From a virus (lineage: Duplodnaviria; Heunggongvirae; Uroviricota; Caudoviricetes), in the IMG/VR virus record IMGVR_UViG_2585427777_000013: DNA of 31,922 nucleotides. One strand, written 5' to 3'. A model generated the notes under the pieces. The model had not been told where the DNA came from. It ran no database searches and was given only the letters and a program-made list of their open reading frames with translations. Both the position numbers and the translations under genes were made by a program. This document shows, piece by piece, positions 13,875-25,897 of this stretch (position 1 is its first letter; every line of letters starts with the position of its first letter).

Positions 13875-14394
13875 CAATCCACCTGCGCACATTCTCACCG
13901 GCTTCAGAAGCCACATCGGATGCTTTCGCGATTTCAGTTTTCACAGCATCAAGATGTACGGGTGATATATCAGGGTATTTACGCTGCAGTGTCTGAGGGA
14001 CACGGACAAGGATCCCTGATATATTCTGTGCCACTCGCTGAAAGATGTAGGTAAATAACTCCGTCTCGAGGACAAGGCCTTCCTCACGAGCATTTTTCAG
14101 CTCCTGTGCATCGGCCTGTGCCTTCGTCAGTCGGTAACGTTCGTAATCAATGGTGCCGGGCTGAAGGTCTGATTCGCTGGCAGCCCTCAAATCCTCGATC
14201 TCTTTACGGAGTTTTTCGTTTTCAATATCAGCTTCCCTCTGCGCATACCACTGAATGGCAGCAGTTGTATCAAAAACTGATTCAGTCCCTTTCCCTCCAC
14301 CAGAAACTAGTGGTAACCCCTGACTCTGCCAGGCGGTGATGGTCCTGACATCAACGCCAAAAATATCGGCCAGTTTTTTCTTATTGACGTTCAT
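13846..14394 (-). CDS. nu1: Terminase small subunit Nu1
   Basis: 182 aa, [24 protein letters not shown]...[54 protein letters not shown] matches lambda Nu1. Confidence 0.9.
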
Positions 14395-14600
14395 ACACTC
14401 CCCCGGGAACCAGAAAGGATCTGAAAATGGCGTTTTCTAACAAAAACAGCCTTTGTCAGATCCTTTTATATTTTTAAAATTCTATTGATAATCAATCAGT
14501 TAAAAAGAAGAAGAACGGATCTGATTTTTCCCTAAAAATTTTCATAAATAGCGAAAACCCGCGAGGTCGCCGCCCCGTAACGGCCCGGATCGCCGGAAAG
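14395..14600 (-). other. cos: cos region: cosN 12-nt cohesive-end sequence at 14564..14575 (plus-strand AGGTCGCCGCCC), cosB between cosN and Nu1
   Basis: Minus strand reads GGGGCGGCGACCTCGCGGGTTTTCGCTATTTATGAAAATTTT, matching the remembered lambda left end about 170 bp upstream of the Nu1 ATG. Confidence 0.8.
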
Positions 14601-14781
14601 GACCCACGAAATGATAATGATTATCATCTATATAAGGTTTATCACAACATGTGTGTACGCCATCAAACCACGAGAAATAATCAATTATGACGCAGGTATC
14701 GTATTGATTGATCTGCATCAAATTAACGTAAAAGCAACTTCAGATAATACAAATCAGCAACACTGAATATGGGGAAACATT

Positions 14782-14982
14782 ATGTCATCAAAGAACAGAA
14801 CCCGCAGAACAACAACCCGCAACATCCGATTTCCAAACCAGATGATTGAACAAATTAACATCGCTCTTGATCTGAAAGGTTCAGGAAACTTTTCAGCGTG
14901 GGTTATTGAAGCCTGCAGGAGAAGGCTGGCAACAGATGCAACGCATCTGCGCCCGGCCAGCATGAAAAATAACGAGAAATGA
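14782..14982 (+). CDS. ylcI: YlcI/YnfO-family small protein (DUF3950), prophage-associated
   Basis: 66 aa, MSSKNRTRRTTTRNIRFPNQMIEQINIALDLKGSGNFSAWVIEACRRRL closely resembles DLP12 YlcI as remembered; GGGGAA ribosome-binding site before the ATG; plus strand, next to cos as in DLP12. Confidence 0.78.
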   Translation: MSSKNRTRRTTTRNIRFPNQMIEQINIALDLKGSGNFSAWVIEACRRRLATDATHLRPASMKNNEK

Positions 14983-15113
14983 ACGTTCGGCTACAGGAGC
15001 AGGTACCCACTGTCCTCCAACAATATTTCATCTTCATATCCGACGGAACAAGACTTACCCTGCCGGGATGTACAGAATAACAACAGAGTGATAATTAATT
15101 TCTGATGAAATAA

Positions 15114-15446
15114 TCAGGGTGCAGAAGGACTAAAGATAAACGTTTTCTTCACGCCTTTACACGGCCTGTCCTTCTCAAATCGCCATTTTGCCATCGCCTT
15201 TACAACCTGCTCATCAAACAAATGGTGCGGCTCTGAACGGATAAACTCAATTCGGGTGACAGTACCATCAGCACCAATATCAAACTTCACATCAACCCGT
15301 CCCTTTATATAATTTGCCGCTGCATAGGCCGGATATTGTGGTAATGCCTTAACCAACTGTCGGGGCATATCTGTTTTATGTTGCGTACAGCCCATAACCA
15401 GAGAAGACAACAAAATAATTAACGGAAGGTTTCTTTTCATTTTCAT
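15114..15446 (-). CDS. Putative lipoprotein with TonB C-terminal-like domain
   Basis: Signal peptide with lipobox LVMGC; C-terminal PQYPAYAAANYIKGRVDVKFDIGADGTVTRIEFIRSEPHHLFDEQVVKAMAKWRFE resembles the TonB C-terminal domain; start set at an internal ATG (the track ORF begins at a GTG). Confidence 0.6.
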   Translation of the reverse strand: MKMKRNLPLIILLSSLVMGCTQHKTDMPRQLVKALPQYPAYAAANYIKGRVDVKFDIGADGTVTRIEFIRSEPHHLFDEQVVKAMAKWRFEKDRPCKGVKKTFIFSPSAP

Positions 15447-15784
15447 TCCCGGCACAGATAAGAATAAGTCTTATTCTAACAATGCCACCCTGTCGGTCAT
15501 CAATCCTCTGCTTAATGGCAACGACAATTATCCGACTTAAATCACAAATCAGACACATGACATAACAGAGCTTGCGAGGTAACACATCGTCCGGTTTCTT
15601 CCACCATCGCACCGGACCAGCGACCATGAGGGGACAACGCCGCGCTCCGTTAACACGGTAAACCCCGGTGTGTATCGTTTTTGATTATCCCCGCACACTC
15701 GCGCAGAGGAGTCTCCCGGTCGGGCTGCGGTCTCTGTTAATGCGGGGATACGGCGACAATACCGCGCATGGTTAATAAGGTCGC

Positions 15785-16009
15785 TCAACACACTGGCTGT
15801 AATGCAGCGGATACCATGCGGCATTTAGCGGCATTCATCGTACACTCAACGGTTAGCTCTTCATTCGTGGCATTCACCTGAAAGGTCCGGGAGTGTAATT
15901 GCGTACATTTACCACTGAACGAACCTTCAACAAGAACACGACCACGCTGCAAAATACGGAACGGAATTGTTCCCTGAAAAGGCTTTACGGTTACCAGTAA
16001 TTTCTTCAT
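15785..16009 (-). CDS. Hypothetical small protein downstream of Rz/Rz1
   Basis: ORF with internal ATG (MKKLLVTVKPFQG..) preceded by GGAG; no recognisable family. Confidence 0.3.
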   Translation of the reverse strand: MKKLLVTVKPFQGTIPFRILQRGRVLVEGSFSGKCTQLHSRTFQVNATNEELTVECTMNAAKCRMVSAALQPVC

Positions 16010-16032
16010 GCATTCTCCGGATAACAAAAATA

Positions 16033-16500
16033 CTAGTTAATACACTGAGTGCGGATATAGTCCTGCGCCCCTTCCAGTTGCTTCTGCATTGTCATCAACC
16101 GCTCTCTGAGGGTGAAATAATCCCGTTCAGCGGTGTCTGCCAGTCGGGGGCCGGTTGCATTATCCACGCGGGCGGTGCCGGTGGCTTCACGCACGGAACC
16201 TGGACAGGTGGCGTTGATACGCAGGCTGCGGCGACCAGCGGCAACGTCAGCGCGCAGAGTTTCATTTTCAGCTCTCGCATCGGCTAACTCCTTTGTGTAT
16301 TTTTCATCCAGCGCAGCAACATCACGCTGACGCTGCTGCATGTCAGTAATGGTTGTGTTTGCCAGCTCCAGCTCTCTGGCTTTTTTATCGCGCTGCGCTT
16401 TGTAGGTGATGGCGTTATCGCGGTAATGATTCAGCCCCAGACTAAGCACACCACAGGCTACCAGCAGGACAATAATCACCACACACAGAACACGGTTCAT
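16033..16500 (-). CDS. Rz: Spanin inner-membrane subunit Rz (i-spanin)
   Basis: [84 protein letters not shown] matches lambda Rz; start at the internal Met (MNRVLCVV..) of the longer track ORF. Confidence 0.88.
16095..16280 (-). CDS. Rz1: Spanin outer-membrane lipoprotein Rz1 (o-spanin), embedded in the +1 frame of Rz
   Basis: [52 protein letters not shown] matches lambda Rz1, with lipobox; lies in a different frame inside Rz. Confidence 0.88.
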
Positions 16501-16599
16501 ATCACCACCAACGGATTGCCCAGACCAGAACAGCAATGGCCACAATACGAATGGCAAATGCCATTGCCCGAATAAGTTCAGCACTCATCTTTTTAAAGT

Positions 16600-16782
16600 T
16601 CACGATTTCAGCGCAATGACCAGTTTTGCCAGCCCATACAGTATCGGAGACACAGCGATACCAACCGCCACCCACTTAATAGCAAAAGCCAGCGCTCTGC
16701 TGATGTCATCAGTTACTGGCGCTTTCAGTTCAAGGCCGTTTTTCATAGTCAACCTCAACAGAATTCGTTTATACTTTTCCAT
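16600..16782 (-). CDS. Hypothetical small membrane protein between endolysin and Rz
   Basis: ORF with C-terminal hydrophobic segment (WVAVGIAVSPILYGLAKLVIAL); start uncertain (GTG at 16815, ATG at 16782 or 16746). Confidence 0.3.
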   Translation of the reverse strand: MEKYKRILLRLTMKNGLELKAPVTDDISRALAFAIKWVAVGIAVSPILYGLAKLVIALKS

Positions 16783-16820
16783 GTTCTCCCTTGCCTTATC
16801 CAAGGTCAGAAACACAAAAC

Positions 16821-16938: not shown

Positions 16939-17472
16939 TTATCTGTCAATTCCCCAGCACGCCAGCGCACTCTCCTGGTCGCGACGGGATACCTGACCGT
17001 AACAGTTGTTTGAGCGAATACGGCAGTCTCTGCCACCGTCCTTAATCCACCAGCGAATCGCTTCGCATGCTCCCCTGCGATCACCTGCATTAATTCGTCT
17101 GTAAAACGTCGACGGGAAACACTTACCGGGACCAATGTTGTACGGACAGAATGACGCGATCCCCGCTTTCTGGGGTTCGGTCAGCGGCACTCTGATGTTT
17201 TTCTCCACCCACGCCAGCGCTTTATCACGCTCAATGGCGTTAACCTGGTCGCATTTTTCCTTCGACAACTTCATGCCCGGAACGACAGGTTTGCCATCCA
17301 CCATGATGGCACCACGGCAGATGGTCCAGATACCCGCACCATCACGGTATGCCGTGGTGTGGTTGCCTTCTTTTTCATCCAGAAACTGGTCGAGAATTTC
17401 AGGCGCAGACGCACCAGCGGCAATCAGCGCCAGAACGGCAGCCGACAGGCCGTATCTGATTTTTGCGTTCAT
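16939..17472 (-). CDS. R: SAR endolysin (T4-lysozyme-like GH24 muramidase with N-terminal signal-anchor-release domain)
   Basis: N-terminal weakly hydrophobic Gly/Ala-rich segment (YGLSAAVLALIAAGASA), then an E-x8-D-x5-T catalytic triad (EGNHTTAYRDGAGIWT); ATG start. Confidence 0.85.
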   Translation of the reverse strand: MNAKIRYGLSAAVLALIAAGASAPEILDQFLDEKEGNHTTAYRDGAGIWTICRGAIMVDGKPVVPGMKLSKEKCDQVNAIERDKALAWVEKNIRVPLTEPQKAGIASFCPYNIGPGKCFPSTFYRRINAGDRRGACEAIRWWIKDGGRDCRIRSNNCYGQVSRRDQESALACWGIDR

Positions 17473-19269: not shown

Positions 19270-21213
19270 TTACGGGTTATTCACTTCCACTGTTATACTT
19301 TCAATCAGCACCGTATACGTCGCCGCTTTTGTGATATCCGTTACACGTAATTTGTCTGCCGCAAAAGAACCTACCGGAGACTGCGACAGCATGAACGGTG
19401 CACCATCCTGACCATCAATCACCGGCGTCACCTGAATGCTGTTATTACCGGCAAAACGGAAACCCAGCGTATGCCATTCGTTGTCAAATGCGCCGAATGA
19501 CCCCAGCTTCGTGTTCTGGTCAGCGTTACCCTTGTGGTACATCACGTTGAGGTCTGTGGCATCGCTCTGTACGTAAAACGACGCCAGCAGATTGTTACCG
19601 GCATTACCTTCCAGTGTGACACCCTGAGGCAATGAAGAAACCGGCCAGTACAGCGCCAGTGCGTACTGATTAGCCGTAAGCGCGCCATCGAGTTTAAAAC
19701 GACAACTGACAAGACCACCTTTACCCAGCAGGTCCGCACCATTACCAGCATCATGCTCAAGGTACCAGGGGGCTCTTCCTGTTTCCTTGGTCAGTTTCAT
19801 TGCCTTACCCCCGCTGGCTCCGGCATCATCCACGATTTGAGCCTTGCCACCTCCAGCAGCCCAACCCTGTGGTGTCAACCGTCCTTCAGACTCAGATGCC
19901 CGGTAAGCAAATAGCGTACTCATCGTCGTGGTGTCTGCGGGTGGCGTGGACGGTTTTGATGGTGTATCAGGTGACGGCTTCTCATCCGGTGGTGTCACGG
20001 TCTGCCCGCGCATCAATTCAGCCGTGCGCCCTGCATGGAGCATAATAGCTGAGGCCAGACGGTCTGAAATGACGCCCCTGCGTGCCCATGAGCTGAAATG
20101 GCTGTCACGCTGTGTCGAAACAAAACTGCCCTGGGTTCGGGATGCTGCACCGTAATACCCGACAGCCACAATATCCGGGTCTTCCGCCGGAGCATTCGTT
20201 GGCGTGCTCTGTCCATTCTCATCCGTCAGGAACGGTACAAAGAAAATATTCTGTGCTTCCCTGCCCTTGTAACCGCCATATACCGCCTCATATTTATCGG
20301 CGTTAAGATTCTTCCAGTAATACGTGGTGTCACCACAAATCCACGGCACCGAGCCAGCACTTCCGCCAACACACTGTGCAGAATATGCAGCCATATCAGC
20401 CCTGAACTGCTGCACCATAGTGGTAAACAGGCCGCTGTGCTGCTGACTGCCGTCCGCAAGATCATTTTCCCCCTGCATCCATACCACGGCCAGAAGCCTG
20501 TTTTTCGGGTTCTTCGACAGCGCCGCTTTTGTACGGAAGAGAAAATCCTGATACAGCGGTTTACCCACTCCCCAGCGGGCTGAATTTGCCGATGCGCCAG
20601 ACGTTTCGCTGAACGTGCCGTCATTCCCCACGGTTAAACCAGCCCCGCCACGGCAACAGGGCACCAGAAGAATCCCGGCATTCTGCGGGATATAAGGCAG
20701 AAGTTTTTTGGCAATATGCAGCCCCTGACCGACAGTCCCGTACTGGCCCTTACTCAGGTCTGCATGAGGATGGTTAAGTGCGCTCATGTCCTGAACATCA
20801 TGCAGACAGTGGTCTGCCGGAATAACGTCATTGTATGCACAGGTATCACCACCCGGCGTCACAGTGCTGCGACGGGCCAGCTGCTTAATACGGGAGTCAG
20901 GGCGATCATAGGTCTCCGGCAGAGGAAGCCCCTCACCATAGGCCATACCGTTCGACTGCCCGGCCAGGGGAATAACGTAGTAATACTCCGGTTCAGTGGT
21001 AGCCACTCCCGGAGAGCCACCAGCCCCTGTGTCGGGCACAACCACAGGCGTGGTCACATCACCCTCTGCGGCAATGGCCTGCATCAGTGTATAAGGCGTG
21101 ATAGCCACAGGACTGCCAAACGGCTGCCAGCCTTCCTTCAGTTTTTGTGTCAGTCGCTCCGCAAGGTCTGACGGCGACGCCGCCCTGACCACGTCATAGT
21201 GTTTAAATGCCAT
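19270..21213 (-). CDS. nanS: Prophage sialate O-acetylesterase (NanS-p-like; DUF1737 N-terminus + SGNH/SASA esterase + C-terminal lectin-like domain)
   Basis: Starts MAFKHYDVVRAASPSDLAERL (DUF1737-like); GQSN esterase block in YYYVIPLAGQSNGMAYGEG; strong GGAGG ribosome-binding site before the ATG at 21213; sits between the tRNA/stx locus and lysis genes as in Stx phages. Confidence 0.82.
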   Translation of the reverse strand: MAFKHYDVVRAASPSDLAERLTQKLKEGWQPFGSPVAITPYTLMQAIAAEGDVTTPVVVPDTGAGGSPGVATTEPEYYYVIPLAGQSNGMAYGEGLPLPETYDRPDSRIKQLARRSTVTPGGDTCAYNDVIPADHCLHDVQDMSALNHPHADLSKGQYGTVGQGLHIAKKLLPYIPQNAGILLVPCCRGGAGLTVGNDGTFSETSGASANSARWGVGKPLYQDFLFRTKAALSKNPKNRLLAVVWMQGENDLADGSQQHSGLFTTMVQQFRADMAAYSAQCVGGSAGSVPWICGDTTYYWKNLNADKYEAVYGGYKGREAQNIFFVPFLTDENGQSTPTNAPAEDPDIVAVGYYGAASRTQGSFVSTQRDSHFSSWARRGVISDRLASAIMLHAGRTAELMRGQTVTPPDEKPSPDTPSKPSTPPADTTTMSTLFAYRASESEGRLTPQGWAAGGGKAQIVDDAGASGGKAMKLTKETGRAPWYLEHDAGNGADLLGKGGLVSCRFKLDGALTANQYALALYWPVSSLPQGVTLEGNAGNNLLASFYVQSDATDLNVMYHKGNADQNTKLGSFGAFDNEWHTLGFRFAGNNSIQVTPVIDGQDGAPFMLSQSPVGSFAADKLRVTDITKAATYTVLIESITVEVNNP

Positions 21214-21300
21214 TATTCCTCCCCTTTCCGGGATTTTCCTCAACAGTTGCGGGCCACGGTCCGGCTACACGGAGAATCAAAAGAGGAGAACCGCAGCCCG

Positions 21301-21332
21301 CAAAACGAAAAAGGCCGCGCAGTTGCGCAGCC
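21301..21332 (-). terminator. Intrinsic terminator (minus strand) about 90 nt upstream of nanS-p
   Basis: Minus-strand hairpin GGCTGCGC-AACT-GCGCGGCC (one G-U pair) followed by TTTTTCGTTTT. Confidence 0.5.
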
Positions 21333-21395
21333 TTATCACAGATGGTAAAAATCAGAACACGATAATAAAAATACCTGATGTATATTCATGCGCCC

Positions 21396-21460
21396 CGCCC
21401 GCCACTCACTGCGGGCTTTTTTTTGCCCATAGAAAAGCCCCTCCGGAGAGGGGCTTTTTA
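21396..21460 (+). terminator. Two adjacent terminator-like hairpins; the second is bidirectional
   Basis: GCCCGC-cactcact-GCGGGC followed by TTTTTTTT; then AAAA-GCCCCTC-cgga-GAGGGGC-TTTTT. Confidence 0.5.
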
Positions 21461-21699
21461 CAGTGGTAGTGTAGACAATTTTGCATGGTGCCGGGTGCCT
21501 CCCGGTGAGTTCAGTATCAGCACCTGAACCCGCACAGAAAGGATAAGGGTCGGTGACAAAACACCAGTTGCTGATTGCCCCTCCGCACAGGGGGATTCAC
21601 CATGCCAGTTTCTTTTAACAAACTCCCCGCAAACCAGACAACAGTCAACCGCCTGAATTGTGAGGTATTTAAAAATTTCAACGGGTAACTGATACCCTG

Positions 21700-21861
21700 C
21701 TAATCGCCTGATGCTTTCTTTTTCAGCAACGGGAAAGCAACAACCACCACACCCGCCACCAGCACACCGTCAGCCAGCACTGACATTATCCGGCTGCTGA
21801 AGTCCACCATCACCACCATCACTACCAGAAACAGCAGGAGCGCAACCACAGCCAGACGCAT
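21700..21861 (-). CDS. Possible small hydrophobic peptide (53 aa, two predicted membrane segments)
   Basis: Hand-translated ORF MRLAVVALLLFLVVMVVMVDFSSRIMSVLADGVLVAGVVVVAFPLLKKKASGD starting 9 nt after the TerB-like stop; below the ORF-track size cutoff; weak ribosome-binding site. Confidence 0.3.
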   Translation of the reverse strand: MRLAVVALLLFLVVMVVMVDFSSRIMSVLADGVLVAGVVVVAFPLLKKKASGD

Positions 21862-21869
21862 TTTTACCG

Positions 21870-22301
21870 TCACAGATGATTCTCCAGACGAAGGCCCAGA
21901 ACACCGGCAATCTCTTCCAGCACCTTGCGCTCTTCCGGCTCTATTTCGCCGTCTGCTTCGGCAATGGCCACCGCCACATCCAGCACGTCTTCCGCTTCAC
22001 GCGTATCGTGTTTCACATCCTCGATCTCACGTAACGCCGCTCGACGACCAATTTTAAAGTTCGTATCCAGCTGACCGATAATGGTTGCGCTAATCGCATT
22101 AATTTCTGACGTAAACGCGGACAACGCAGGCTGGTTACGCAAGACCTGCTCGATCTTCGCTTTCTCTGAAGCCTCACATTCACCATCTGCATAGGCCACC
22201 AGATAGGCAGCATTAATAACCGCCTGTGCCAGATCACGTTTCTCAAACTTTTTAATTTCCACTGCCGCTCGGCGGGCTTTTTTACCAAAAATACCAAACA
22301 T
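21870..22301 (-). CDS. TerB-domain protein (tellurite-resistance TerB-like)
   Basis: Two ADG..E motifs (AYADGECEASEKAKIEQ and AEADGEIEPEERKVLEEIAGVLGL) typical of TerB; start at the internal ATG with AAGGA ribosome-binding site. Confidence 0.6.
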   Translation of the reverse strand: MFGIFGKKARRAAVEIKKFEKRDLAQAVINAAYLVAYADGECEASEKAKIEQVLRNQPALSAFTSEINAISATIIGQLDTNFKIGRRAALREIEDVKHDTREAEDVLDVAVAIAEADGEIEPEERKVLEEIAGVLGLRLENHL

Positions 22302-22433
22302 CGTGACGTTCCTTTGGGTGGGTGAGCCAACGCCCGGGAGCGATCTGCCCACAGAGAAAGTCACACTGACCACTCCGTAAGCTCACCCCCGAAAGGCTCT
22401 GTGGTTGATATGCGCCGGGCGTGGCGCGGATAC

Positions 22434-22457
22434 AAAAAAGGCCCGCAAAAGCGAGCC
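22434..22457 (-). terminator. Intrinsic terminator just downstream of the tRNA cluster
   Basis: Minus-strand hairpin GGCTCGC-TTTT-GCGGGCC (one G-U pair) followed by TTTTTTG. Confidence 0.4.
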
Positions 22458-22471
22458 GGGAAAAATAAGTC

Positions 22472-22548
22472 TGGCGCGTTGTACTGGATTCGAACCAGTG
22501 ACCGATTGCTTAGAAGGCAATTGCTCTGTCCGGCTGAGCTAACAACGC
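22472..22548 (-). tRNA. argO: tRNA-Arg, anticodon UCU
   Basis: Hand-folded cloverleaf: acceptor GCGUUGU/ACAACGC, D-arm GCUC..GAGC, anticodon stem AUUGC/GCAAU with loop CUUCUAA, T-arm ACUGG-UUCGAAU-CCAGU, encoded CCA. Confidence 0.85.
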
Positions 22549-22561
22549 AGGATACAGATAA

Positions 22562-22638
22562 TGAACCGCCTTCGGGGACCCGAACTCCGCGCAACCAGCT
22601 TCGAAGGCTGGCGCTCTTTCCTGATGAGCTAATGGCGG
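22562..22638 (-). tRNA. argN: tRNA-like gene, anticodon loop CUUCGAA (UCG, Arg); imperfect, possibly degenerate
   Basis: Perfect D-arm and anticodon arm (CCAGC-CUUCGAA-GCUGG), but an A-A mismatch in the acceptor stem, an A-C mismatch in the T-stem, T-loop UUCGGGU (G at position 58) and UCA instead of CCA at the 3' end. Confidence 0.45.
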
Positions 22639-22645
22639 TATGTGA

Positions 22646-22721
22646 TGGTGGCCCTTGCTGGATTTGAACCAGCGACCTGGCGATTATGAGTCGCTCGCTC
22701 TCACCACTGAGCTAAAGGGCC
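22646..22721 (-). tRNA. ileZ: tRNA with anticodon CAU, most like tRNA-Ile2 (lysidine, reads AUA); Met not excluded
   Basis: Hand-folded cloverleaf closely resembling E. coli ileX: acceptor GGCCCUU/AAGGGCC, anticodon loop CUCAUAA, T-arm GCUGG-UUCAAAU-CCAGC, encoded CCA. Confidence 0.8.
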
Positions 22722-22749: not shown

Positions 22750-23463
22750 TCAATAATCAAGCCCTTGCCTGGATACATATCTGTCTGGCGGGAAGCCATA
22801 ATAGCGGTGAAATACAGAAATAAAGTAGGACCTGCTTGAATAACCGCATTTTTCTGCTATAGCCTGTCCATATCCATGCCGGGAACATAACATATTTACA
22901 GCAACACGCATCCGCTCTTCCAGCAACAAGCGACTGAACATGCCCCCTTCATTTTTCAGTTTTGTCTTTAACAAACTCTCACTCATATGCAACTGTAGAG
23001 CAATCGCACAAAGCGTCCAGCTTGCTGATATATCTGTCTGAATTATCGCCCTGACTTTGGCACTTATGCTGGATAAACATCCACTTAAAAACAATGACAT
23101 CCGTTCATCTGTTTCAAACAGAGACAGGCAGGCCATCATAAGAAACATATCCGTGGCCTCTCCGGAAAATCCCTGGCTGGTAATTAAAGCCGCAGCCAAC
23201 GCAGGATTGTTGGGTTCCAGCAACAGGTAAAGCGGAATGTCAGTCAGACGAGTCCTCGTCAGCTTATGCTGACTTTCCAGATATTGACTTACGACGGATT
23301 CGCTTATATCGACAATTTTAACTTTGCCATAATGCATAAGGAAAAGCTCCCTGATGCATTTGGTGGCCAGAACAACTGAGCCTGGCTTAAGTGACAACGT
23401 ATCCTTTTCAAGAAAAATATTAATTGGGGAGCAAACCATGATAACTGAACAGACAACAGCCAT
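22750..23463 (-). CDS. AraC/XylS-family transcriptional regulator
   Basis: 237 aa; C-terminal AraC-type HTH signature (..LLLEERMRVAVNML..GYGQAIAEKCGYSSRSYFISVFHRYYGFPPDRY); AT-rich; ATG start. Confidence 0.8.
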   Translation of the reverse strand: MAVVCSVIMVCSPINIFLEKDTLSLKPGSVVLATKCIRELFLMHYGKVKIVDISESVVSQYLESQHKLTRTRLTDIPLYLLLEPNNPALAAALITSQGFSGEATDMFLMMACLSLFETDERMSLFLSGCLSSISAKVRAIIQTDISASWTLCAIALQLHMSESLLKTKLKNEGGMFSRLLLEERMRVAVNMLCSRHGYGQAIAEKCGYSSRSYFISVFHRYYGFPPDRYVSRQGLDY

Positions 23464-24047: not shown

Positions 24048-25205
24048 ATGACCACACTCAAAGAACTCAAAGAAGAGCTTGCTCAGATTCAAGATGAAAA
24101 CGCGAAAAATAGAAAAAAAGCTGAAATTGCAGCCTTGGTCACTTCTGCCGACAACGAGATTAGGCTTGCTCAGAGAAATATTGGATACAACGTACGTGAA
24201 TGGACCGTTGAATTAATTGTACAAAAGTATGGCAATAATCTTGAAACTGACAAAAACGAACTTTTTATTCCTGATTATCAACGCGATTACAAATGGGATA
24301 TCAAAACAGCCTCTCGATTCATCGAAAGTATATTATTAGATTTTCCAATCCCGTACCTCTACATCTCCGACGTATTTAATGAAGATCCTGAGTTGGATGG
24401 TCGTGTAGAAATTATTGACGGTTCACAAAGGATTCGCTCAATTTACTACTTTTGGAACAATCAGTTTGAATTGAAAGACTTAAAAGAACTCAAAAGTTTA
24501 GAGGGCTTCAAATTTTCAGATCTTTTGGCTAGCCGCCAGAGGCGATTTTTAAGGGCATCACTAAGATTTATTGAATTGAAAGGTGATGTTGAGGAGCAAC
24601 ATAGAAGAGATTTATTCGAAAGAATAAATTCAGGTGTTAAGAGACTGGAAGCGATGGAGGTTAGACATGGTTCAGATGCGGCCACTTCAATTTTCTATAG
24701 GGATGTTGTGACTCCTTGCTCAACAAATCCACTTTTCGCTAGTCTAGCTCCATTATCAGACCGGAAACGTTCGAATGGCGATCATCGTGAGTTAGTTTTG
24801 AGATTTTTTGCATACTTAAATGATTTAGAAAATTATAAGGGTTATGTCGCTCCTTTTATTGACAATTATCTTAATGTTCAGGCCGAAAGGGTCACACAAC
24901 AAGATGTAGACAAATTTAAACATGATTTTGAAAGCATGCTTGCTTTTGTAGATGCTCATTTCCCTATGGGGTTTAAAAAGACACCAACAAGCAAAACCAC
25001 CCCCCGTGCTAGATACGAAGCCATAGCAGTGGGAACTGCTCTTGCCTTAAAAGCCAATCCACATCTACAGGCTCCGGTTATTCCTGTAGGAGACTGGCTG
25101 TTTGGGGAGGAATTTGAAACCATAGTTACTGCTGATAGTGCCAACAACACCAGCCAACTCAAAAACAGAATATTTTATGTCAAAGATAAATTATTAGGAA
25201 TGTAA
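24048..25205 (+). CDS. DUF262 (ParB/GmrS-like NTPase) domain protein with no recognisable nuclease domain
   Basis: 385 aa; DUF262 hallmarks IPDYQRDYKW and IIDGSQRIRSI, plus ..DLFERINSGVKRLEAMEV..; AAGGAA ribosome-binding site; AT-rich; plus strand, opposite to the phage backbone. Confidence 0.8.
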   Translation: MTTLKELKEELAQIQDENAKNRKKAEIAALVTSADNEIRLAQRNIGYNVREWTVELIVQKYGNNLETDKNELFIPDYQRDYKWDIKTASRFIESILLDFPIPYLYISDVFNEDPELDGRVEIIDGSQRIRSIYYFWNNQFELKDLKELKSLEGFKFSDLLASRQRRFLRASLRFIELKGDVEEQHRRDLFERINSGVKRLEAMEVRHGSDAATSIFYRDVVTPCSTNPLFASLAPLSDRKRSNGDHRELVLRFFAYLNDLENYKGYVAPFIDNYLNVQAERVTQQDVDKFKHDFESMLAFVDAHFPMGFKKTPTSKTTPRARYEAIAVGTALALKANPHLQAPVIPVGDWLFGEEFETIVTADSANNTSQLKNRIFYVKDKLLGM

Positions 25206-25207
25206 CT

Positions 25208-25897
25208 ATGAGTTTGATTGATTTAAGAGATGAATACGAAGAAAGAGCAAGAGATATTATGGAATTGCTTTCTCTTGCGTCATCTTTAGAGGCTCAGACT
25301 CAGCAGTTAGATCAGCAAACGCATAAAGATGAAATAGAATCAAATACCCTTAGGGTTAACATTTTAAAATCATCCGTGCACATGATGCTGTACAATCAGG
25401 TTGAAAACACTGCCAGAGGATGCATTGAGTCAATTTATGACCATTTGCAAGATAATGAAGTAAATTACGCATCACTCAGGGAGAAATTCCAAGTAAATAT
25501 CTTGCACCGTATCATTTCAGATAATGAATCGGGAAAATCTCTTTATCAAAAAATTGGTTCCGATATATCTAAAAGGATCATTTCAGCCTCATTAAACATA
25601 CGTAAAGAATTCAATGGTAATGTTTGCAAGTCTGTATTGCACAAAATAACACAAGCTTACGGAATAACTGTTGCAAACTCACCAGAGTGTAGAAATGGTG
25701 TTGACTTAGATTTACTTAAAGATATCAGAAATGAGCTGGCACATGGAAGTACCAGCTTTTCTAAAAAAGGTCAAATAGACCCTTTAGAAGAAGTCAAATC
25801 GAGGTCAGAAAGAATTGATCTATATTTGCGTTTATTAATCAACTCAACAGAAAATTATATTACCTCTAACGGGTATTTATCCCCTCAACATGTCTGA
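25208..25897 (+). CDS. Predicted HEPN-domain protein (R-x4-H motif), partner of the DUF262 gene
   Basis: 229 aa; C-terminal LKDIRNELAHGSTSF contains R-x4-H; ATG 2 nt after the DUF262 stop with AGGA ribosome-binding site; predicted helical. Confidence 0.6.
   Translation: MSLIDLRDEYEERARDIMELLSLASSLEAQTQQLDQQTHKDEIESNTLRVNILKSSVHMMLYNQVENTARGCIESIYDHLQDNEVNYASLREKFQVNILHRIISDNESGKSLYQKIGSDISKRIISASLNIRKEFNGNVCKSVLHKITQAYGITVANSPECRNGVDLDLLKDIRNELAHGSTSFSKKGQIDPLEEVKSRSERIDLYLRLLINSTENYITSNGYLSPQHV

Follow-up and report, generated by a model that had tools for sequence, protein, structure and literature searches.

A small gene on the minus strand of a lambda-like prophage, a Caudoviricetes genome (Duplodnaviria; Heunggongvirae; Uroviricota; IMG/VR record IMGVR_UViG_2585427777_000013) encodes a lipoprotein with a TonB C-terminal (TonB_C) domain; the whole stretch analysed, 31,922 nucleotides, is called the window in the following. 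The gene shares the orientation of the late operon and lies between the Rz/Rz1 spanin genes and cosN, its stop codon being 538 bp before cosN on the same strand, with Nu1 and the large terminase subunit immediately downstream of cosN. The exact cosN match and the gene order thus bear out an initial annotation of this DNA, which had placed the gene between Rz/Rz1 and cos, close to the genome end. The same annotation assigned it to the moron position that holds bor in lambda. This is right for the Rz-cos region; however, the gene is no equivalent of bor, as it runs in the late-operon direction and coexists with bor in phage 21.

The gene sits in an accessory cassette that is missing from collinear sibling phages. 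When window positions 14300-16700 were compared by blastn with phage vB_EcoS-569R3, the blocks 14781-14990 and 15588-16700 proved to be adjacent there, which means that 14991-15587 is a discrete insertion and moron-like in that sense; comparison with PPyecE_EH1910 gave a similar result. The roughly 590 bp between Rz/Rz1 and the TonB_C gene hold no recognisable protein family, and the two open reading frames (ORFs) there, 15549-15824 and 15785-16027, have no Pfam match. Some 440 bp of this interval, 15588-16030 between Rz and the cassette, are 88-94% conserved in the sibling phages and may be either coding or regulatory.

The ORF extends from an ATG at 15446 to the stop codon at 15114-15116, and a start at 15446 would give a 110-residue protein. 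The ATG at 15440 is the more likely start, with a GGGA Shine-Dalgarno sequence 6 nt upstream; the corresponding 108-residue version is used both by PGAP (WP_000828068.1, 'TonB family protein') and by the annotators of phage 21. The lipobox is LVMG followed by the cysteine to be lipidated, and the mature protein has 90 residues with threonine at position +2. The lipobox cysteine is invariant in a family alignment of 16 sequences, and of 58 short homologues at least 41 satisfy a strict lipobox filter, their +2 residue being Ser, Ala or Thr, never Asp. The lipoprotein signal with an LVMGC lipobox that had been noted from the sequence is thus upheld by the sequence itself and by family conservation. 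Under the +2 rule for lipoproteins, Thr at +2 predicts sorting to the outer membrane, and an outer-membrane location is predicted for this protein on that basis.

The domain match exceeds chance by a wide margin. A profile search for TonB_C (PF03544), named beforehand as the check on the initial annotation, gave a strong match (E=1.3e-14; 54.8 bits against a cut-off of 24.6), and TIGR01352 matched with 54.5 bits against 27.1. Searching the PDB by sequence retrieved the C-terminal domains of E. coli and Salmonella TonB at E~4e-16, aligned without gaps over residues 28-106 (79 residues), and 31 of 83 residues (37%) are identical in a gapless alignment with E. coli TonB 153-235. The AlphaFold2 model, built from a 45-sequence alignment, has a pLDDT of at least 96 across residues 26-103 and folds as two helices packed on a three-stranded sheet, as in the TonB C-terminal domain. 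By Foldseek it superimposes with root-mean-square deviations (rmsd) of 1.1 Å on 2gsk_B (TonB from the BtuB complex; target-normalised TM-score 0.91), 1.2 Å on 2grx_C (TonB from the FhuA complex) and 1.4 Å on 1u07. Profile, PDB and fold matches therefore all agree with the TonB C-terminal-like domain that had been suspected. Among viral proteins, the search for structural relatives gave no BFVD match better than E=0.34.

Residue mapping shows that the TonB core residues P161, Y163, P164, F180, G186, F202, W213 and F230 are retained. Of these, Y163, P164, F180, G186, F202, W213 and F230 are also kept in the phage 21 allele and are invariant or nearly so across the family. The landmarks in the window protein are the YP motif (Y36 P37), G59, F75, W86 and a last strand, residues 94-103, which starts with Lys-Lys, ends in F103 (TonB F230) and is the counterpart of TonB 226-231. 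In TonB, the 226-231 strand pairs in parallel with the TonB boxes of receptors and F230 packs against the conserved TonB-box valine; it has been suggested that a positive charge on the strand matches the acidic residue with which the box opens (PMC6118199). In the nuclear magnetic resonance structure of E. coli TonB, an extra C-terminal strand occludes this pairing site and must be exchanged for the TonB box (PMC6118199). The window protein ends at the equivalent of TonB 235, so this last C-terminal strand is missing, and about 8 residues separate the lipidated cysteine from the domain.

Two positions distinguish the window allele, Cys94 (codon 15159-15161) and Gly47 (codon 15300-15302); in the sequence that represents the largest 90% cluster, of 395 members, these residues are Arg94 and Glu47, although Gly47, the equivalent of TonB G174, is otherwise nearly invariant in the family. 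Cys94 is the lone free cysteine of the mature domain, and disulfide-linked dimers could form through it.

Table 1. Coordinates of the TonB_C lipoprotein gene, its surroundings, other features of the window and the Fur boxes of chromosomal relatives
Feature	Position	Strand	Remarks and basis
TonB_C lipoprotein coding sequence	15114..15440	-	108 aa + stop; ORF list, sequence
Predicted lipoprotein signal peptide MKRNLPLIILLSSLVMG, then lipidated Cys18	15387..15440	-	sequence; lipobox kept in family
TonB C-terminal domain	15132..15365	-	residues 26-103; Pfam/NCBIfam, PDB alignment, AlphaFold2/Foldseek, residue mapping
Proline-containing tail SPSAP, five residues	15117..15131	-	residue mapping to TonB
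Accessory cassette, ~600 bp	14991..15587	.	gene + 141 bp 5' flank + 123 bp 3' flank; missing from collinear siblings
Candidate sigma-70 promoter ATGACC-16 nt-TGnTAGAAT (extended -10)	15473..15500	-	pattern scan; 27 nt upstream of first ATG
Perfect 8-1-8 palindrome AGAATAAG-A-CTTATTCT, 17 bp	15461..15477	.	overlaps candidate -10 and predicted transcription start
cosN GGGCGGCGACCT	14564..14575	-	exact lambda match; right end of packaged genome
DUF3950 (YlcI/YnfO) gene	14782-14982	+	convergent, between TonB_C gene and cosN
Rz	16033-16584	-	embedded Rz1 at 16095-16280
Holin	16600-16815	-	late-gene strand
Endolysin	16939-17472	-	late-gene strand
NanS-p-like esterase (DUF1737+SASA+DUF6645)	19270-21243
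Small RNA STnc100	21425-21634
TerB-domain ORF	21870-22373		between tRNAs and small RNA
tRNA-Met/Arg/Arg cluster	22472-22721
AraC-type regulator ORF	22750-23463	-	upstream of late region
GmrSD_N-domain ORF	24048-25205	+	followed by ORF 25208-25897; upstream of late region
Fur boxes, chromosomal loci	L004 5971; L008 5972; L010 5918; L013 5927; L014 5958; L017 1608; L023 7042

Although the domain is that of TonB, the protein cannot be TonB. It has no N-terminal cytoplasmic-membrane anchor, the N-terminus being a cleavable lipoprotein signal, and no Pfam match to the proline-rich spacer PF16031, which the full-length TonBs among its relatives carry; its scores against the TonB equivalogs NF008080-84 are 49-74 bits where the cut-offs are 265-448, with only the C-terminal ~80 profile positions matching. 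Several other identities were rejected. PHROG 1267 bears the label 'Rz-like spanin'; however, a separate Rz with an embedded Rz1 is present in the window, the protein, with its globular TonB_C domain and polar SPSAP C-terminus, lacks a C-terminal transmembrane helix, and in the annotation of phage 21 an i-spanin and an o-spanin stand beside the TonB_C gene as separate entries. A Bor/Iss protein was rejected because there is no Bor-family match (Pfam gives only TonB_C and TonB_2), besides the opposite orientation and the coexistence with bor already described. Relationship to Cor or Llp was likewise rejected, as Pfam, PHROGs and PDB searches give TonB-type matches only, and PADLOC gave a chance-level hit only (E=0.023) for a known defence-system protein.

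The gene is widespread. Identical or 99%-identical copies occur in Stx1a-converting phages, Lys8385Vzw and JLK-2012; phage 21, ev017 and Perceval carry an allele with 72% identity, and copies of 40% and 35% identity are found in the Klebsiella phage ST13-OXA48phi12.4 and a Rahnella lambdoid prophage, respectively. One or the other of the two E. coli alleles is found in 1616 of 5426 complete E. coli genomes (~30%), always under the name 'TonB family protein', and relatives are encoded on 220 IMG/VR viral contigs. Between the window and phage 21 alleles dS is ~1.4 and dN/dS 0.13, which indicates that the gene is maintained by purifying selection and is not a tonB fragment. In four phages with 35-72% identity (the window phage, phage 21, the Klebsiella phage and the Rahnella prophage) it occupies one and the same slot, behind the lysis genes. 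The Klebsiella phage and the Rahnella prophage have it directly after the lysis cassette, on the same strand and before the terminase genes, and the slot is kept there in spite of different lysis enzymes and terminases; in phage 21 a genuine bor precedes it. A fragment with 70% identity to this E. coli phage protein also appears on a 418-bp contig of an actinobacterial (Modestobacter) assembly (NZ_SJEX01000172.1), almost certainly by contamination of the assembly.

Exhaustive and profile searches place the protein in an Enterobacterales clade of lipoproteins of ~108-130 aa with a single TonB_C domain each, and the nearest outgroup consists of genuine enterobacterial TonBs with 44-45% identity over the domain. 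Many members are encoded on chromosomes with no phage genes beside them. These ~110-aa proteins of Raoultella/Klebsiella, Serratia, Pantoea, Erwinia and Salmonella are 33-46% identical to the window protein and are annotated 'TonB family protein'. The locus is syntenic in Raoultella and some Klebsiella species, where it adjoins lacZ and lacI; in Serratia grimesii the gene adjoins dsbB and nhaB, in Erwinia typographi panE, and in Pantoea it stands among metabolic genes. By neighbour joining, the phage copies occupy three distinct places in the tree; two of these, held by the Klebsiella phage and the Rahnella prophage, are nested within chromosomal clades (99-100% bootstrap), which argues for more than one exchange of the gene between phage and chromosome. 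The chromosomal Raoultella homologue is followed directly by a gene for a DUF1440 (YagU-like) membrane protein (L004 6738-7301), and a DUF1440 gene is also found in the Klebsiella phage that carries the TonB_C lipoprotein (L003 1277-1903); this may be coincidence or a functional pairing.

A Fur-box palindrome, TGATAATnATTATCA, with 0-2 mismatches, stands 15-85 nt upstream of the start of each chromosomal copy in Raoultella/Klebsiella, Serratia, Pantoea and Erwinia (Table 1). Such sites are rare: the scan covered 326 kb of DNA and returned about 20 in all, and the single site at each chromosomal locus is the one upstream of the homologue. In the Pantoea agglomerans ORF as called (P0195, 132 aa) the Fur box lies inside the annotated N-terminal extension, so the start of this ORF has apparently been called too early. 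Thus, the chromosomal members are very probably derepressed under iron starvation, along with the TonB-dependent receptors. The Fur boxes, a link that is new here, are the strongest contextual evidence that the family acts within the TonB system rather than being an unrelated use of the fold. No Fur box was found upstream of the phage copies, and the best match upstream of the window gene is only 13/19, a score with a background frequency of ~10%.

From the position of the gene, it would follow that it is transcribed within the Q-antiterminated late message. A candidate promoter of its own was noted by pattern scan, but the scan gave 6 sites where 3.7±1.5 are expected in shuffled sequence, so the candidate is not significant alone. 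The element is only partly conserved in phage 21: its TGT[T/C]AGAATAAGAC island is kept there, where the end of a small ORF overlaps too, and no consistent comparable site is seen in the Rahnella or phage 21 loci. The 17-bp palindrome overlapping this candidate is possibly an operator for some regulator; its right half is absent from phage 21. Downstream of the stop codon there is no intrinsic terminator, and the predicted folding of the 3' flank does not exceed that of shuffled sequence (z=0.32).

A perfect palindrome of the Fur-box type, TGATAATGATTATCA, lies at 14612-14626, 36 bp from cosN on the right-end side. It is ~490 bp downstream of the gene and beside cosN, and is therefore not the gene's promoter. 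The site is also present in an identical E. coli prophage (L027 4321), in weaker form in phage 21 shortly ahead of the annotated cosQ (L001 4047), and with one mismatch just upstream of the small terminase gene of an unrelated Klebsiella phage (L003 8606). It may be a packaging signal, a protein-binding site or chance.

We propose that the window protein is a lipid-anchored, unenergised TonB mimic which competes for TonB boxes or for TonB itself, a reading that we favour tentatively and would place somewhat short of even. After export by Sec, lipidation of Cys18 and Lol sorting directed by Thr at +2, the domain would hang from the inner leaflet of the outer membrane, and the short linker would place it at the periplasmic face of the TonB-dependent transporters. 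There its last strand, predicted to be uncovered in the absence of the extra C-terminal strand of TonB, would pair with TonB boxes, and the Lys-Lys at the strand start could complement the acidic first residue of the box. In this way the protein would capture the boxes of transporters engaged by a ligand, phage or colicin, and/or those of incoming group B colicins; mixed dimers with TonB are also possible. With no link to ExbB-ExbD it would deliver no energy, thus acting as a competitive, dominant-negative decoy. The expected outcome is reduced TonB-dependent entry of group B colicins, microcins and phages such as T1 and phi80, at some cost in siderophore and vitamin B12 uptake.

A decoy has an engineered precedent and is consistent with the retained pairing strand and the Fur boxes of the chromosomal relatives. 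For the precedent, PMC9841981 states, citing Howard et al. 2001, that TonB-dependent import is inhibited when a periplasmic TonB domain is overexpressed. Outer-membrane placement, TonB-box binding, inhibition as the outcome and the time of expression are inferred. The fragments of Howard, Herrmann, Stratilo and Braun (2001, J Bacteriol 183:5885) reportedly inhibit phi80 infection and colicin M killing as well. Blocking of the phage's own receptor is unlikely, since phage 21 uses LamB, which is TonB-independent; any exclusion would thus be aimed at other phages or colicins and not at its own kind. We are less sure of the physiological reading, protection from TonB-dependent phages and bacteriocins, than of the molecular reading. 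A still wider proposal is that outer-membrane-anchored TonB C-terminal domains form an unrecognised class of broad-spectrum envelope defence ('TonB-box decoys') that stems from the energy transducer of the host itself, which would blunt T1/phi80-type phages, group B colicins, catecholate microcins and klebicins, be deployed under Fur by enterobacteria at the very time when the TonB-dependent receptors are derepressed, and have been captured repeatedly as accessory cassettes by lambdoid phages including phage 21 and the Stx1 phages; this we consider doubtful.

Several observations weigh against the decoy. The FhuA-contacting residue R166 of TonB is Tyr in the whole family, R158 and Q160/Q162 differ among alleles, and the Q160 position is Leu in the window protein. 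Neither a promoter nor a terminator of the gene's own exceeds the chance level, and expression may be from the late transcript only, in which case lysogens would be unprotected. Moreover, the family is not phage-specific, and syntenic, apparently Fur-regulated chromosomal copies fit a simple inhibitor poorly: their conservation under Fur argues that the family benefits the cell just when TonB-dependent uptake is needed. In full-text searches of the literature, nothing turned up on what phage-encoded or small lipoprotein TonB_C proteins do.

Because of these apparently Fur-regulated copies, a purely inhibitory role is not the sole reading. The protein might instead be a positive or modulatory accessory of TonB-dependent transport, docking TonB by way of C-terminal-domain contacts or holding exposed TonB boxes for hand-off and so improving or tuning uptake in iron starvation, with the phage copy as an iron gene of lysogenic conversion. 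At least five lineages have the Fur box directly before the chromosomal homologue, the Raoultella/Klebsiella synteny suggests a stable host function, and other chromosomal copies have housekeeping neighbours (dsbB, nhaB, panE). Nevertheless, we regard this as unlikely: no mechanism is known that would let a TonB domain without energy supply assist transport, the sole experimental precedent for free periplasmic TonB domains, as cited in PMC9841981, is inhibition, and the Fur box is missing from the phage copies, through loss or from the outset. A late-gene function alone would have the protein made by Q-antiterminated late transcription and in no lysogen, closing TonB entry to competitors late in infection or modifying the envelope at lysis. 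Such a role would account for a gene that in all four phage contexts is co-directional with and directly after the holin, endolysin and spanin genes and before the terminase genes, that has no convincing promoter or terminator of its own, and whose PHROG 1267 is filed under 'lysis'. It is decidedly unlikely, however, given that the window already has a complete Rz/Rz1 spanin pair, that the phage 21 annotators, who list the i-spanin and o-spanin separately, name the protein a TonB C-terminal domain protein, that the cassette is dispensable and missing from siblings, as is typical of accessory genes, and that the chromosomal homologues work outside a lysis context.

The remaining alternatives concern the fold and the origin of the gene. 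A TonB-like fold could serve another partner, such as peptidoglycan or a different envelope protein, with no connection to TonB boxes; TonB_C domains do occur in proteins with other roles (GltG and AgmX-type proteins give weak matches in the profile search), and the receptor-contact residues R158, Q160 and R166 are not conserved. Against this stand the pairing strand with F230, which is kept, the genuine enterobacterial TonBs as the closest relatives outside the family (44-45% identity), and the Fur boxes that tie the chromosomal members to iron uptake, and we hold a different partner to be very unlikely. The older annotations of ev017 and Perceval, 'partial tonB-like membrane protein' and 'TonB fragment', express the view that a phage has picked up an inert piece of tonB, and indeed only about the last third of TonB is covered. 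This view is contradicted by the evidence of selection and of the signal peptide and is effectively refuted: dN/dS is 0.13 at a dS of ~1.4, the lipoprotein signal is an acquired and conserved feature rather than a leftover, identity to the host's own TonB is just 37%, and over 1600 genomes have the frame intact.

Public records already carry the domain annotation and the gene is common, so that novelty would lie in the proposed activity and not in the observation as such. The gene is carried by ~30% of complete E. coli genomes, by the classical phage 21 and by Stx1a-converting phages. If the decoy reading is true, a natural dominant-negative TonB mimic would be a form of exclusion acting through the shared TonB box, unlike the one-receptor Llp and Cor, and it could change the host range available to phage therapy, colicin and microcin competition in the gut, and the iron uptake of lysogens. 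Changed iron uptake would in turn feed back on Fur-regulated genes. The Shiga toxin gene stx1 is such a Fur-regulated gene. The Fur-boxed chromosomal relatives offer an independent second route to the physiology of the family.

Elsewhere in the window, the late region at 19270-22721 is arranged as in an Stx phage, with the esterase, small RNA, TerB-domain and tRNA features listed in Table 1; none of the window ORFs scanned belongs to the stx family. The GmrSD_N-domain ORF upstream of the late region may be type IV restriction or defence cargo.

Compared with known systems, the window protein is closest in fold to the C-terminal domain of E. coli TonB (~150-239; PDB 1u07, 2grx, 2gsk), with which it shares the Pfam family, an rmsd of 1.1-1.5 Å, the YP motif, the aromatic core and the TonB-box-pairing strand ending in F230. 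Unlike TonB, it has no anchor or proline-rich spacer and hence no ExbB-ExbD connection, being lipid-anchored to the outer membrane by prediction; the last ~4 residues of TonB and its extra C-terminal strand are missing as well, and R166 and Q160 are replaced by Tyr and Leu. Engineered periplasmic TonB fragments are likewise C-terminal domains without the energy-coupling anchor. Those of Howard in 2001 are said to have been artificial, soluble, overexpressed, at least 118 residues long and derived from the host's own TonB, whereas the window protein is natural, diverged, 90 residues long and predicted to be lipid-anchored, its decoy activity being putative.

The closest natural functional analogues would be Llp of T5 and the Cor lipoproteins of phi80, N15 and T1, which are also small phage lipoproteins on the periplasmic side of the outer membrane (PMC9586334). 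Llp and Cor inactivate the TonB-dependent transporter FhuA from below by binding its plug, and the TonB box is left free (PMC9586334). Llp binds specifically a non-native conformation of the FhuA plug, whereas the window protein is unrelated in sequence and fold and its predicted target is the generic TonB box. This box is common to all such receptors, so the interference would be broad and TonB-specific, sparing the TonB-independent T5. Lambda Bor/Iss is likewise an outer-membrane lipoprotein encoded by an accessory gene between Rz and cos; however, lambda bor points against the late operon and is driven by a promoter of its own, whereas the window gene follows the late-operon direction. The chromosomal TonB_C lipoproteins share the lipobox and the single TonB_C domain and are stand-alone, Fur-boxed genes, in contrast to the phage copies, which lie in the late region without a Fur box.

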